Shown here: positions 1,339 through 5,622 of the stretch, piece after piece
Numbering within the stretch: the stretch's first letter is position 1
How the letters are laid out: each line of letters opens with the position of its first letter
Source: Candidatus Hadarchaeota archaeon
GTDB lineage: Archaea > CAYQAE01 > CAYVLA01
DNA: 64,000 nucleotides
NCBI GenBank assembly: GCA_964621445.1
Contig: CAZUNO010000015.1
Location: 1-64,000, forward strand
Reading direction: 5' to 3'
Translations under genes and position numbers: made by a program
Notes under the pieces: generated by a model
Seen by the model: the letters and a program-made list of their open reading frames with translations, nothing else
The model's database searches: none
What the model was told of the DNA's origin: nothing

Positions 1339-1614
1339 TTGGTGGTAATTGTGGAAATTATAACCGTTGACAAAGTTGGGAGAGTCGTTCTTCCCAAGGA
1401 GACTAGGGACAAACTGCAAATTGAGAATGGAACCAAGTTGCTGGTCGTCGAGGTAAAGGAGGACACGCTGGTGTTGAAGAAACTGAATATCCAGGAAATG
1501 AAGAAGCAGCTCGACATGGATTTGGAGAATGTTGACCTTGAAGGACTATTGAAAAGGGTGAGAGTGGATACAAATGAAAAGGTCAAAGGGGCGTACCCGG
1601 AAATTCTTGGTTGA
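1339..1614 (+). CDS. AbrB/MazE/SpoVT-family antitoxin (VapB-like)
   Basis: VDKVGRVVLPKETRDKLQI swapped-hairpin motif; overlaps the downstream PIN gene. Confidence 0.85.
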   Translation: MVVIVEIITVDKVGRVVLPKETRDKLQIENGTKLLVVEVKEDTLVLKKLNIQEMKKQLDMDLENVDLEGLLKRVRVDTNEKVKGAYPEILG

Positions 1615-2008
1615 TACTAATGCATTTGTATCAGCAATCAAGAAACCAGGGAAGGCCCTTGAACTCCTACTAAGATTGTTGGGAAAGGAATTCAATTTAG
1701 TGGCCAATCCCTATCTGGTGGATGAGTATACCAGGTATTCCAGGGAGCTGCCTTCCGATGTTGCGCGCTTTTTGATGGCGGAACTTTGTTCGAGGCTCCG
1801 GGTGGTAGAGGTGGCGGAGAGATTTGTTAGGTTATGCAAGCCATATTTCCAGCCCGGAGAGGCAGTGGATATTCTTATTGCAGCCACATGTCTACAGGAA
1901 GGTGCAGTTCTAATAACGAATGATAAACATTTCACCGAAATAATGGAAGAGGGAGTGATCGAGGTATGGAGCATTTCCGATGCGATCGATGAACTCCTCC
2001 GGAATTGA
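1574..2008 (+). CDS. PIN-domain toxin (VapC-like ribonuclease)
   Basis: FLVDTNAFV, E(Y), DILIAA and ITNDKHF acidic PIN motifs; coupled to the AbrB gene. Confidence 0.88.
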   Translation: MKRSKGRTRKFLVDTNAFVSAIKKPGKALELLLRLLGKEFNLVANPYLVDEYTRYSRELPSDVARFLMAELCSRLRVVEVAERFVRLCKPYFQPGEAVDILIAATCLQEGAVLITNDKHFTEIMEEGVIEVWSISDAIDELLRN

Positions 2009-2240
2009 TGGAACGAGGATTTTTTTAATCCACCAATTCTTATTTCTTAGTCCTACCAAGATTATCGTATTTCGCCAACGAGTGTAGAATTCCTCACTCT
2101 AAGAGGATGAAAACGCCGAAGGCCGAACGCCTAATTGCCAATTAGTCCGCAAGGATGCGATAGAGGTTTTAGAATAAGTCGGGATAGAGCTAAACAATAC
2201 TTTTGATTTCTTGGGGTAAAAGAGCTGGTGCCGGATGCTT

Positions 2241-2324
2241 GCTGGGGTGACTGAGCGGCCGAAAATGTCCGGTTGAAAACCGGATAAGGCTCAGCCTTCC
2301 CGGGTTCGAATCCCGGCCCCGGCG
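2241..2324 (+). tRNA. Class II tRNA with serine-type body; anticodon reads GAA in the canonical register (tRNA-Ser-like/atypical, possibly a pseudo-tRNA)
   Basis: Acceptor GCTGGGG/CCCCGGC + G73; D-loop GAGCGGCCGA; anticodon stem TCCGG/CCGGA with loop TTGAAAA; variable arm AAGGC-TCA-GCCTT; T-arm CCGGG-TTCGAAT-CCCGG. Confidence 0.85.
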
Positions 2325-2643
2325 CCTGTCCGGCACCAATATTAGTATTATCTTAAGCGGTATTAAAGTATTGCCTGAGCTTGTCGACAAAGACATGAAA
2401 ATATCCTTAACTGGTATTTTTTGAAATCTACCGGTGGAAACCTGCTCTGCTTTTCCGCGTACATTTCCCCATCCGATTACTACCATGAAGTCGTTCAGTG
2501 GGGCATAAATCCATAACACCCACCATAATGTGAATAATTGCGTTTTTTTCAGTCCGAAATTCGATTGGCCGGCCCCGAAGAATTCGCTTGCTAGGGAAAC
2601 CGACTCAACTCTAATCCACTAACCTTATTTCCATCCTGAAGAG

Positions 2644-5622
2644 TCAGATGTCAATGCTGATCTTCCTCCCCACCTGGATGGTGACCGGGCCCATTAGACC
2701 GGAGGGAGGCAAGGGCTGGTAGCCGAATAGTTCCTGGGCACGTTTTCTCCGGGTGCCGGCATCTCCCCCCAGACGCTCTTTGAGATGGTCGGGGACCGGT
2801 GGAATCTCCTCCAGCCCCGAGACCCGGTTTATCAGCGTGTTGGTAACCTTAACCACCAGGGAGTTGGTGCCCGGTCTGGCGGCTTCCGTAATGTCCAGTG
2901 TTTGTCCCCGCATCCAGCGGACCCCAACGTCAATTCCGTTTAGCTCAACCTCCGCGATGTCGCCCACCGAGCCCAGGTCCAGGTCGAGAAGTAGATCCTT
3001 GAAAAGATAGGATACCGGAAGATCGAACTTTACCTCGTACCGTCCCGTCCCGCTGAAATGCTTGGTCCTTTCATCCTCGGTCCACGATCCTAGCCCGGAC
3101 AGGGAAATGGAGGTTTCCGGGAAATCCTTCCCTTTCAATAAGAGTTGCCAGTCGCCCTCTATCCTGAAGTAAGGGGGTATATCCTCTACACTGGTCCTGC
3201 CCGAGCTCCCGTCATCCAGGGTAACCCCATGTATTCCATTTTGGGAGACGATGCCCTGCACGGCATGGTCGTTAACGCGAATCACGCGATCCAGGGTGGA
3301 TTCGGTAACGTGTCCCTGTGTATTCTGTTGATCCTCGAAAACAATGAATGTTGAACCGTAGGGTGGCAGGGAGATGGGTAGGCGGGTTACCTCCCCCTCC
3401 TCCCGGTACTCCCAGAGCCGGTGGATCTCCCCCGACACGGGATTACATTCGGTGGGCCTCTTACCGGTAACCCGGAAGGCTAGCGGCATGTCCATGGCTC
3501 GGTCCTGTACATTTGCCACGAAGTAGATATCACGTTCATCGGTCCTCCTGTGGATGTGGGTAATTCCTCGGTTCTCGCGTATGTCGTGTTTCAGGAAATC
3601 GATGCCCATGTCGGGGGTGACGTGTTCCCGGAGAACGTTCAGGAAGGGATCGAACACGCTGGCGTGCCTGTCAAGGGGGTTTGAGCGGTCGATCACGTTA
3701 TGGATATGGTAGGTCTTACCGCGCCCGTACTCCCTGGGCGCGGTGGGGTTGACCCGCCACCGGGGAAGGTCGAACATCTCCTCAACAATCCTCCTTACCT
3801 CCCGGTCCCGGCTCTCCCAGTCCTGCATTCCGACCGAGGCCTCGGGAACTCGTTCCAGGGCCACCACCTTGCCTCCTCCCTCGACCCAGTCCCGCACGGC
3901 CTTCAGGGTCTCCAGGGGCATGGCCCGGATGTTGGGCAGGATCAGTACCGAGTACTCGGTCTCGTTGATGGTGATCGTGCCCTTTTCCATGCGGGAAAGG
4001 TTGACGAGAGAATCATCATTTACCAGGTCGAAGTCGTACCCGTTGGCGATAAGCAGCCTGCCAAGTTCGCCCCACTCGAAACCCCGTGGCCAGCTGCGAG
4101 CGTTGAGCACGTCCTCGGTCCACTGGCTGGCCAGTGGAGAATAGACGGCGATATCGGCAACGAAACTGCCCTGCCTCAGCAGGTGACAACAGCGGGCCAA
4201 GTAGTCGCTGAGACGGCGGTAGTACTTCCACCACACGTTGGGGTGGCTTATGAGAACCTCGGACTGGAACCTCCTAGAGGGAGCGGTCTCCCGTTCGGGG
4301 GTGCAGCTGTAGCCATGGTTGTAGAACTTGTTGGCCCCAGATCGCAGGAACATGTCGGAGGCGATCTTCAGCTCCTCCAGGGTACCCCGGTAGGACTCCC
4401 AGTGGAGATATGTGTAGGCCTCCACGCTGACGACATTCCTGCCGTAGATGTGGGCCCCCGAGGACACGTACTTCTTGGGACCTATACGGGTGTCGAACCG
4501 GGTCAGGGTGTCCTTCTCCCCGGCAGTGATCTCCATCTCCGGGATATGGGTCATGCCCGCCCCCTCAATGATGTCAGTGGTGAACCCGTAGGGCTGGATT
4601 CTGCCCCTTACCCCGTTTCGCTGGCACCAGTCAAGGAAGGTGGAGAAGAAGGCCTCCAGCCCCACGCGGTGCAGGAAGTGGTTCACGTCGTAGCGAATCC
4701 TCGGGGATATCTCTCCCACCTCCCACCAAATGGCCGGCAGGTAGGGGACCAGGTCGTAACCCTCGGTTTCACGGAACCTGTCCAGGAGACCCCGGCTCCA
4801 GTAGATGCCGTTATCTAGGAGGGCCACCTCGAAGCTATCCACGAAGAAGGACTCCACGGTTTTCCCGAACTCCTCCCCAAATTCCTCCCGGAACCTGCCT
4901 CCCAGGTGTTTGCAGTACCGCTCCATGGCCTCCTTGTTGAAATGGTCGATGGCGTGTCCCTGTCCAGTTGGCTTGAGCCAGAAGGCCATCAGCTGCCACT
5001 GGCCATCAGGGACCTCCCACTCCAGACTGCGACCATCGACTCTTCCCGTGAGGTCCAGGAGGCTATCCTCTTGTAAAACTCCGTCCCCAACCCTGGCCGC
5101 TACCATGGCTAGAAGTTCATCCTTCGGGTCTATTCCCTCCAGACGTATCTGCCCGGTTTGGGGATGATCGCCTATGTCTATTGGTATCTCTCCAGAAAAG
5201 GTTGTGGATCCAGTGATGCGGGTCCATGTGGGTACCATGTTCATGCTCCTGTCCTCGGGTGGAAGCCAGTCTCCGCCGATTACCCAGCCCGGTCCCCCGA
5301 AGTTGAGCGAGAACTCCATGCCCAGCCTTCTGGCCTCCTCGATGGCGTGTTTGACCAGCTCGAAGAACCGGTCTGAGAGGTAGGGGACGTTGCCCTTCCG
5401 GTAGACTGGCTGCATGGTGATCTGCTCCACGCCCCCGATCCCCTGCTCCCGCATCTGCTCCAGCTGCCAGGTAATGTCCTCCTCCAGGGCCGCGTTCCCC
5501 ATCCACCACCAGCGGGTGTGGGGCCGGCAGTATATGGGAGGATCCAAAAAAGAGCTCAAAGTGTTTTCATGGTTCTGGCGTTCCAGGTATTTCTCCGTGT
5601 TGTCCCTGCCCTTCATATTCAA
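2644..5622 (-). CDS. Large glycoside hydrolase, GH106 (alpha-L-rhamnosidase)-like
   Basis: RPHTRWWWMGN, GIGGVEQ, FFVDSFEV and VEAYT motifs; C-terminal sugar-binding domain (DLGSVGDIAEVELNG...VTNTLINR...PSGLMGPV). Confidence 0.85.
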   Translation of the reverse strand: MNMKGRDNTEKYLERQNHENTLSSFLDPPIYCRPHTRWWWMGNAALEEDITWQLEQMREQGIGGVEQITMQPVYRKGNVPYLSDRFFELVKHAIEEARRLGMEFSLNFGGPGWVIGGDWLPPEDRSMNMVPTWTRITGSTTFSGEIPIDIGDHPQTGQIRLEGIDPKDELLAMVAARVGDGVLQEDSLLDLTGRVDGRSLEWEVPDGQWQLMAFWLKPTGQGHAIDHFNKEAMERYCKHLGGRFREEFGEEFGKTVESFFVDSFEVALLDNGIYWSRGLLDRFRETEGYDLVPYLPAIWWEVGEISPRIRYDVNHFLHRVGLEAFFSTFLDWCQRNGVRGRIQPYGFTTDIIEGAGMTHIPEMEITAGEKDTLTRFDTRIGPKKYVSSGAHIYGRNVVSVEAYTYLHWESYRGTLEELKIASDMFLRSGANKFYNHGYSCTPERETAPSRRFQSEVLISHPNVWWKYYRRLSDYLARCCHLLRQGSFVADIAVYSPLASQWTEDVLNARSWPRGFEWGELGRLLIANGYDFDLVNDDSLVNLSRMEKGTITINETEYSVLILPNIRAMPLETLKAVRDWVEGGGKVVALERVPEASVGMQDWESRDREVRRIVEEMFDLPRWRVNPTAPREYGRGKTYHIHNVIDRSNPLDRHASVFDPFLNVLREHVTPDMGIDFLKHDIRENRGITHIHRRTDERDIYFVANVQDRAMDMPLAFRVTGKRPTECNPVSGEIHRLWEYREEGEVTRLPISLPPYGSTFIVFEDQQNTQGHVTESTLDRVIRVNDHAVQGIVSQNGIHGVTLDDGSSGRTSVEDIPPYFRIEGDWQLLLKGKDFPETSISLSGLGSWTEDERTKHFSGTGRYEVKFDLPVSYLFKDLLLDLDLGSVGDIAEVELNGIDVGVRWMRGQTLDITEAARPGTNSLVVKVTNTLINRVSGLEEIPPVPDHLKERLGGDAGTRRKRAQELFGYQPLPPSGLMGPVTIQVGRKISIDI

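Follow-up and report, generated by a model that had tools for sequence, protein, structure and literature searches.

A serine-type tRNA family with a phenylalanine anticodon and a leader-trailer helix in Candidatus Hadarchaeota

Natural tRNAs whose body and anticodon point to different amino acids are rare, and they bear on the rigidity of the genetic code and on deliberate mistranslation by cells or mobile elements. Earlier examples come from bacteria (allo-tRNAs) or eukaryotes (nematode nev-tRNAs). Allo-tRNAs, described from soil bacteria, place a non-serine anticodon on a serine-type class II body with an 8/4 or 9/3 acceptor/T branch; their genes are often found near toxin-antitoxin (TA) systems or transposon genes, and many are inactive or degenerate (available excerpts of Mukai et al., 2017, PMC5389517). 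Nev-tRNAs are leucine-type class II tRNAs with Gly or Ile anticodons, which are charged with leucine in vitro and belong to the core genome of their clade (available excerpts of PMC4300185). In yeast, the engineered tS-F(GAA) puts serine at Phe codons, and its toxicity is escaped only if the tRNA is destabilised and degraded (available excerpts of Zimmerman et al., 2018, PMC6125640). Here we describe an archaeal tRNA gene of this mismatched kind, located at 2241..2324 on the forward strand of a 64,000-nucleotide (nt) stretch of Candidatus Hadarchaeota DNA (assembly GCA_964621445.1, contig CAZUNO010000015.1, positions 1 to 64,000; hereafter the window). It combines a class II body of serine type (bases 1-73) with the anticodon GAA, and its leader and trailer are predicted to pair in a helix that we call the clamp helix.

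We consider it highly probable that this gene belongs to a real and conserved family of mismatched tRNAs. The best reading of its role, which we hold tentatively, is that of an archaeal mismatched-identity tRNA derived from tRNA-Ser, which would be loaded with serine and read UUU and UUC (UUY). If matured and loaded, it would place serine where phenylalanine belongs. Like the allo-tRNAs, the family has a serine-type class II body, a non-serine anticodon, a patchy distribution, degenerate copies, and TA or transposon neighbours. Unlike them, it is archaeal and has a 7/5 branch, and it carries a covarying leader-trailer helix, of which the available excerpts of PMC5389517 describe none for allo-tRNAs. 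An earlier note on this DNA, made from the letters alone, had proposed an allo-tRNA-like character. That proposal is supported as to the identity conflict, which is real and conserved; the 12-bp branch of the 8/4 or 9/3 kind, by which allo-tRNAs are defined, is lacking in these genes. With the nev-tRNAs, as far as the excerpts of PMC4300185 go, the family shares a conserved class II body, an anticodon that does not match it and the lack of detectable recoding, and it differs in being serine-type and accessory. The man-made, eukaryotic tS-F(GAA) likewise has a Ser body, GAA and A37, and the destabilisation described in the excerpts of PMC6125640 parallels the weak pairs in two of the genes described below; the natural family adds the clamp helix and a promoter-like box of its own. 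Our literature search, which covered few subscription journals, returned no archaeal mismatched-identity tRNA, no natural tRNA with a Ser body and GAA, and no tRNA with a covarying leader-trailer helix that extends the acceptor stem. Among mismatched-identity tRNAs, the family is new in being archaeal and in having the clamp helix.

The tRNA body and its relatives

The window is contig C15 of the source genome (G000), an archaeal assembly of 3.2 Mb in 89 contigs that is 96% complete. ARAGORN finds a single tRNA in the 64 kb, at 2241-2326 (+), and labels it Phe(gaa). The Rfam tRNA model (RF00005) matches 2241-2324 with E 2.6e-6 for the window; the match scores 44.8 bits, and the gathering threshold is 29. 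The Rfam alignment sets the register: the stem UCCGG/CCGGA (2268-2272 with 2280-2284) closes the 7-nt loop UUGAAAA (2273-2279), and the anticodon GAA lies at 2275..2277, as the earlier note had read it. The serine-type features named there are also all in place, i.e., G1-C72 in the acceptor stem GCUGGGG/CCCCGGC, G30-C40 (G2271-C2281) in the anticodon arm, G73 at position 2324, and a long variable arm (2285..2299) with a 5-bp stem AAGGC/GCCUU (2286-2290 with 2294-2298), the 3-nt loop UCA and one unpaired base on each side. This arm resembles that of the resident Ser tRNAs, and in the Rfam alignment it stands as an insertion of 13 nt in the place of the short variable loop of class I tRNAs; the body is not class I. 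U3.G70, U32 and a C11.A24 mismatch inside the 3-bp D stem, all of which had been pointed out before, are present on direct reading of the sequence, together with U33 and A37. The T arm is CCGGG-UUCGAAU-CCCGG, and the bases used for tertiary interactions (U8, A14, G18G19 and the T loop) are kept. The Phe anticodon G34, A35 and A36 is there, and G73 and C20 stand where A73 and G20 are found in tRNA-Phe. A serine anticodon (NGA or GCU) is absent, as GAA is found in every copy with an intact arm.

Two other RNA classes were considered and rejected. A tRNA-Sec (9/4 fold, long D stem, UCA) gave only a sub-threshold match on the reverse strand, with 17.1 bits against 47, and for a Y RNA or YrlA-type mimic the Deinococcus Y RNA model scored 18.6 bits against 80. 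No Ro (TROVE) protein was found in the five genomes of the phylum, while control genomes gave matches.

The segment 2241-2324 is spanned by Logan contigs of two sequencing runs, X1 at a depth of 5.6 and X2 at a depth of 6.5. They have zero letter differences and thus agree with GAA at the anticodon, the position whose base calls the earlier note had wanted confirmed. The two runs come from one study, possibly the source of the assembly itself, and the bin is a low-coverage metagenome with contig depths of ~6. Independent support for the base calls comes from the recurrence of GAA in a paralogue and in relatives.

In the genome collection, the phylum comprises five species (G000-G004). We built a covariance model from the window gene (C15), a paralogue in the same genome (G000:C45:5941-6025) and an orthologue (G003:C198:4221-4334), and ran it over the five genomes. 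These three intact copies score 132.5, 131.7 and 120.4 bits, followed by G002:C69 with 70.1 and G003:C30 with 58.9 bits. The C45 paralogue is a class II tRNA with G73 and GAA (Rfam tRNA 55.1 bits) in which every stem pair is standard. Its anticodon arm is identical to that of C15 letter for letter, and in the acceptor, D, variable and T stems the two genes have diverged through compensating changes. The G003 orthologue has 88% identity across the whole unit and the loop CUGAAGA, again with anticodon GAA. Both share with C15 the 7-bp acceptor stem and 5-bp T stem (7/5), G73 and G30-C40, and G53-C61 is present in C15 and C45. The earlier note had suggested looking for the same gene in relatives, and GAA is kept in the G003 orthologue as well as in G002:C69:8029-8148 (-), which has the loop CUGAAGA, the same flanks, a 4-bp D stem and U20. 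A run of 10 N in the G002 copy sits inside the variable arm and is probably a scaffold gap. A further copy in the source genome, G000:C85:173-250 (-), lies on a 2.3-kb contig, scores 41.4 bits with Rfam, is labelled Pro(agg) by ARAGORN and has the related trailer CCUUGUUCGGCACC. Its acceptor stem and G73 are the same as in the canonical Ser tRNAs, and its 4-bp D stem resembles that of the G002 copy. There are accordingly two body types, with a 3-bp serine-like D stem (C15, C45, G003) or a 4-bp one (G002, C85), and the anticodon arm and flanks are common to both.

Across the three intact copies, 97.2% of pair cells are paired and both sides have changed at 9/36 pairs, which none of 500 shuffles matches; this count rests on three sequences, a small number. 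Two of the five pairs of the variable-arm stem covary. The anticodon stem is the only stem without variation among the three genes. Selection on a tRNA fold whose anticodon arm is fixed would leave just such a pattern.

BLAST of the unit against 41 archaeal genomes gave full-length matches in G000 and G003 only. A genome scan with the anticodon-arm pattern returned four stretches, namely the G002 copy, the G003 copy, one Sphingomonas gene and one chance match. A metagenome scan with the trailer pattern returned 54 stretches: one is a truncated relative of the G002 copy (L101), another five proved to be ordinary tRNAs of bacterial type (two for Arg, one for Gln and two Ser(UGA)), and at the remaining 48 no tRNA was called. 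Of two scans of viral sequences, one came back empty and the other gave a single chance match inside coding sequence, and blastn against phage and plasmid collections found nothing at E 1e-3. L101 is a 1.3-kb metagenome contig that ends within the near-identical copy, and the gene tends to break assemblies. The Sphingomonas gene (Sphingomonas sp. Leaf208, NZ_LMKH01000035.1; L154 2001-2046) is a serine-like class II tRNA with the loop UUGAAAA and the anticodon GAA. It has a damaged 3' acceptor strand, lacks the leader-trailer helix and is situated ~0.8-1.7 kb from IS66-family genes (TnpB_IS66, HTH_Tnp_1). It seems to be a separate bacterial case of a Ser tRNA that is mismatched or broken and lies close to a transposon.

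Leader-trailer helix and promoter-like box

The 5' strand of the clamp helix, GGUGCCGGAUG (2227..2237, +), pairs with 2327-2337. It is followed by CUU (2238..2240, +), the 5' side of an internal loop between helix and acceptor stem, which RNAfold draws as a 3x3 loop. The trailer (2325..2337, +) consists of CC and then the 3' strand UGUCCGGCACC (2327-2337). RNAfold predicts the helix, with 11-12 bp, in all five copies that were folded, the degenerate ones included. In the three intact copies all 11 helix pairs are paired in each sequence, with two two-sided and two one-sided changes (A-U to G-C, U.G to C-G, G.U to A-U). The G.U pairs and the compensation indicate an RNA helix rather than a DNA repeat. 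It prolongs the acceptor stem across the internal loop, which is 3x3 in C15, 6x3 in C45 and 2x2 in G003 and always includes C74 and C75.

Archaeal split and permuted tRNAs also have GC-rich leader-trailer helices of about a dozen pairs; those helices sit at the split site and form the bulge-helix-bulge for the splicing endonuclease (available excerpts of PMC4090602), whereas the one described here extends the acceptor stem of an unsplit gene. We rejected a bulge-helix-bulge substrate (two 3-nt bulges, 4-bp helix) for our locus by eye, as the junctions in the RNAfold structures are plain internal loops.

The trailer GCCUG(U/C)CCGGCAC is common to C15, C45 and the G003 orthologue. Searching the five phylum genomes with the trailer pattern gave four matches in 3/5 genomes, all of them family members, and a reversed control pattern gave 0. 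Within the source genome, the paired leader-trailer motif is found at C15 and C45 only.

Upstream of the helix lies a conserved promoter-like box, caatacttttgatttcttgg (2194..2214, +), which contains the TATA-like cttttgattt at 2200-2209 and is conserved with the G003 orthologue. With blastn, C15 and G003:C198 align over 2186-2337 (85.5% over 152 nt), with no similarity outside this segment. The similarity thus begins 55 nt upstream of the tRNA and ends exactly at the end of the helix; in contrast, the match between canonical tRNA-Phe genes begins at their first base. Proteins of the genomes that share the box and the covarying helix are only ~50% identical. Compared to the A/T-rich boxes of the canonical tRNA genes in G000, the box is ~10-12 nt further upstream of base 1, and transcription would then begin close to the 5' strand of the helix. 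The clamp helix may show how a potentially toxic tRNA is restrained, or it may point to a role outside translation tied to tRNA-cleaving toxins.

Other pairings are also predicted for this RNA. In the minimum-energy fold from RNAfold, CUGAGC in the D region (2251-2256) pairs with GCUCAG in the variable arm (2289-2294) and replaces the D and variable stems of the cloverleaf. C45 has an analogous pairing of GAGGCC with GGCCUC, and the two could reflect chance or a competing precursor fold. The window segment 2226-2338 also holds seven CCGG in 113 nt (in the leader, both anticodon-stem strands, the T stem, the acceptor stem and the trailer), and the CCGG(A)/(U)CCGG of leader and trailer could pair with the anticodon-stem strands, giving alternative precursor folds.

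Origin, charging and decoding

The acceptor stem GCCGGGG/CCCCGGC with G73 is found in exactly four genes of the source genome, i.e., the three canonical Ser tRNAs and the C85 copy. It is also the acceptor of G003:C30, and those of C15 and G003:C198 are one transition away (U3.G70). The Leu tRNAs of G000 have GCGGGGG and A73. As the acceptor and G73 are shared with Ser tRNAs and the Leu tRNAs differ, the family descends from tRNA-Ser. It also has the G1-C72, G30-C40, 3-bp D stem and 5-bp variable stem of the canonical tRNA-Ser of G000, and departs from it in GAA, in A10-U25 for G10-C25, in being intron-free and in the leader-trailer helix; the canonical Ser genes have introns and no flanking complementarity. 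Canonical tRNA-Phe(GAA) differs in its class I body with a short variable loop, in A73 and G20, in its canonical intron and in the anticodon stem CCGGA/UCCGG, the odd gene having UCCGG/CCGGA. Common to both are the anticodon and G30-C40, as well as the whole loop CUGAAGA in the G003 and G002 copies.

The anticodon arm of the C15 type, N-CCGG-UUGAAAA-CCGG-N, might have arisen from a Ser(UGA) arm that lost 2 nt on its 5' side. The intron of the resident Ser(UGA), a non-canonical one, sits at the same spot as this proposed loss, and an alternative ARAGORN parse of that intron, with 22 instead of 20 nt, shifts the anticodon likewise.

An inventory of Ser and Phe tRNAs, as the earlier note had recommended, shows that canonical Phe(GAA) with A73 and Ser tRNAs for UGA, CGA and GGA are all present in G000. 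Ser(UGA) at C6:118610 has a 20-nt intron at 30/31 and matches an intron-free gene in G004 (assigned by eye), Ser(CGA) is at C9:91782, and Ser(GGA) is at C8:70382 (GGA assigned by eye). No tRNA-Ser(GCU) was found in the assembled G000 contigs. The canonical tRNA-Phe(GAA), intron-bearing and with A73, is present in G000, G001, G002 and G003, and in G000 it additionally has G20 and a short variable loop. These assignments allow for the many introns in G000 tRNA genes, some of which lie at non-canonical positions, with more than one per gene in some cases (37 Rfam matches, many of 90-124 nt). ARAGORN without intron handling mislabels many of the intron-bearing genes, and even with -i the Ser(UGA) gene comes out as Leu(gag) and the Ser(GGA) gene as Glu(ttc). 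We read C7:8-97 as Arg(UCU) with an intron within the anticodon stem.

The source genome encodes one standard seryl-tRNA synthetase (SerRS; G000:C8:50617-51873; TIGR00414, 501 bits) and one PheS, the phenylalanyl-tRNA synthetase (PheRS) subunit, and no methanogen-type SerRS was found in it. A second PheS-like match was considered as a dedicated synthetase and rejected, as it is a genuine SepRS (TIGR00470, 453 bits vs 381). This O-phosphoseryl-tRNA synthetase is encoded at G000:C25:22906-24462 (L161 961-2517), and Cys-tRNA is therefore made by the indirect route.

To see how UUY is decoded, we aligned G000 by tblastn with 200 kb of G004 (71 high-scoring segment pairs, HSPs) and ~100 kb of G001 (95 HSPs). 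Columns with TTT or TTC hold F in 45-56% and S in 1.5-3.2% of cases. The Ser share at TTY is within the range of other hydrophobic codons and is not above that at Leu, Ile or Tyr codons. Reassignment of UUY is thus ruled out, since TTY aligns with Phe. With UUY meaning Phe and with canonical tRNA-Phe and Ser tRNAs present, the GAA tRNA described here is not required for any codon.

Recognition by SerRS in bacterial-type and archaeal systems depends strongly on G73 and then on G30-C40 and ignores the anticodon, and the conserved Phe determinants are G34, A35, A36 and A73, with G20 added in yeast and Aeropyrum pernix (available excerpts of PMC9976931). Because the SerRS determinants are present and A73 and G20 are missing, Ser-tRNA(GAA) is the most likely product. 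In the reading we prefer, each gene would be its own transcription unit, with the promoter-like box followed by a precursor of ~110 nt in which leader and trailer pair as an 11-12 bp helix that extends the acceptor stem over the small internal loop. After end trimming and CCA completion, the RNA would bear the serine determinants G73, G30-C40 and the long variable arm, lack the two Phe determinants A73 and G20, and be loaded with serine by the single standard SerRS. Ser-tRNA(GAA) would then read UUU/UUC in competition with canonical tRNA-Phe and cause low-level or conditional Phe-to-Ser substitution, and the clamp helix and the single-pair defects of some copies would hold down the amount of active tRNA. 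Since the yeast construct is toxic unless destabilised, the clamp helix suggests attenuation, as do the weak pairs in G003:C198 and C15 and the fact that the gene is frequently lost.

Several observations weigh against decoding with serine. The tblastn alignments hold no proteome-scale trace of Ser decoding at TTY, and the serine identity rules derive from other organisms. The toxicity of Ser-tRNA(GAA) in yeast argues, by analogy, against constitutive activity. RNase P and tRNase Z could be impeded by a leader-trailer duplex of this length, and the mature tRNA may therefore never form. Recognition by PheRS, or by an RNase, would keep the anticodon arm invariant just as well. Also, few copies are flawless: C15 has the C11.A24 mismatch and U3.G70, in G003:C198 G53 faces A61 and the variable stem contains a C.U, and G002:C69 has C.A mismatches in the acceptor stem in addition to its 10 N. 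G003:C30 lacks the 3' half of the anticodon arm, and in C85 the loop is missing together with the 5' half of the stem. Finally, G001 (99% complete) and G004 (98% complete) have zero copies by covariance model and trailer pattern.

Toxin-antitoxin neighbourhood and alternative roles

Two genes upstream of the tRNA in the window, on the same strand, resemble a VapBC pair: an AbrB/MazE-type antitoxin gene (VapB-like; 1339..1614, +; Pfam PF04014, E 2.6e-7) and a PIN-domain toxin gene (VapC-like; 1574..2008, +; Pfam PF01850, E 8.8e-10), which ends 233 nt before the tRNA. The G003:C198 locus has ParE/DUF2683 on one side and MNT/HepT on the other, and its contig also holds a PIN gene; G003:C30 is flanked by PIN genes. 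At C45 an rve integrase fragment is located 1 kb away, and the little flanking DNA present at C85 and G002:C69 holds no such TA gene. TA genes are thus found at 3/6 loci, and 3/7 copies or fragments are defective. PIN matches number 18 in G000 (3.2 Mb) and 51 in G003, and by arithmetic the DNA within 400 nt of a PIN gene makes up ~0.7% of G000 and ~1.5% of G003. The loci are few and not independent, and accessory DNA and TA genes tend to co-localise, which makes the TA context a pointer. The unit is non-syntenic, as C15 and G003:C198 share nothing beyond the 152 nt. The family is accessory and behaves like cargo of variable, TA-rich regions.

Of the alternatives to serine decoding, the one that survives best, though we think it rather unlikely, is that the product is a tRNA-shaped RNA with no role in translation. 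The clamp would keep it unprocessed and uncharged, and its Phe-type anticodon arm would serve as a decoy, sensor or regulator for TA RNases (PIN/VapC, HepT) or for another mobile-element factor. Such a role would fit an anticodon arm that is the sole stem without variation, a loop that in G003 and G002 is the same as that of canonical tRNA-Phe, two D-stem body types that share arm and flanks, a helix kept even in degenerate copies and the TA genes that adjoin half of the loci. Moreover, many allo-tRNAs were concluded to be unused in translation (Mukai et al., PMC5389517, in the excerpts available). However, the full set of tertiary bases, G73 and the 7/5 architecture are kept, none of which would be required of a simple anticodon-arm decoy. 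Accessory regions commonly hold TA genes, and the adjacency may therefore reflect shared mobility only; the other 3/6 loci have no TA gene, and there is no known toxin target here.

A related proposal, which we consider unlikely, combines both roles in a gated mistranslation or decoy module of archaeal mobile or TA islands. The leader-trailer helix would lock the RNA as an inert precursor that is released or destroyed only under certain conditions, e.g., when the neighbouring VapC or HepT RNases are activated. The toxic tRNA would then scramble the proteome, or the RNA would soak up a nuclease aimed at tRNA-Phe. If true, it would give Archaea their first natural mismatched-identity tRNA system, which would also be the first to carry a built-in lock on maturation. 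The unit is in any case compact (~150 bp with promoter-like box, clamp helix and tRNA) and testable, as nature provides one pristine copy (C45) and defective variants in a background of a single SerRS and PheRS.

It is more doubtful that the gene is a spare tRNA-Phe in a class II body, e.g., a nuclease-resistant copy, which PheRS would load via the anticodon so that UUY is read correctly. Such a role would account both for the gene being tolerated and for the ordinary look of TTY codons. G34, A35 and A36 are the strongest Phe determinants (available excerpts of PMC9976931). The anticodon GAA does not vary, and in G003 and G002 the loop has moved closer to that of canonical tRNA-Phe (C32, G37). 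On the other hand, G73 replaces A73, C20 (U20 in G002) replaces G20, and the long variable arm and G73 are SerRS features. There is also only one PheS and one SerRS, i.e., no dedicated partner enzyme, and we know of no natural class II tRNA-Phe.

Still less probable, in our view, is a neutral relic, in which a duplicated tRNA-Ser family has become functionless and decays, GAA being an accident of history. The degenerate copies C85 and G003:C30, the single-pair defects of C15 and G003:C198 and the absence of the gene from G001 and G004 agree with decay, and the arm may be derivable from Ser(UGA) by the 2-nt loss at the intron spot. Nine compensatory pair changes with an untouched anticodon arm instead imply long-term selection on fold and arm, C45 has no non-standard stem pair at all, and the box and covarying clamp helix persist between genomes as divergent as these. 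A specific form of decay, from tRNA-Ser(GGA), had been offered in the earlier note as its own alternative. It is not borne out, as the arm is invariant in the three intact genes while the other stems compensate, and the resident tRNA-Ser(GGA) has an unrelated anticodon arm. The conservation of GAA and the compensatory changes between copies lead us to set aside decay as well as assembly error. An assembly or base-call error turning GGA or UGA into GAA is hardly conceivable, as it has no positive sign beyond the low contig depth (~6), the contigs of two runs agree over 2241-2324, and GAA also occurs in the second G000 gene and in two other genomes.

Downstream of the tRNA, the window encodes a 992-aa GH106 protein (alpha-L-rhamnosidase family; 2644..5622, -). 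This gene, the only one that the locus has in common with G003:C7 and G001:C11, has orthologues with 64-66% identity on these contigs, where the tRNA is absent, and several paralogues, and the DNA beyond its stop codon differs between genomes. A 109-aa open frame (2190-2519, -) overlaps the tRNA and is most likely a spurious read-through of the tRNA gene.

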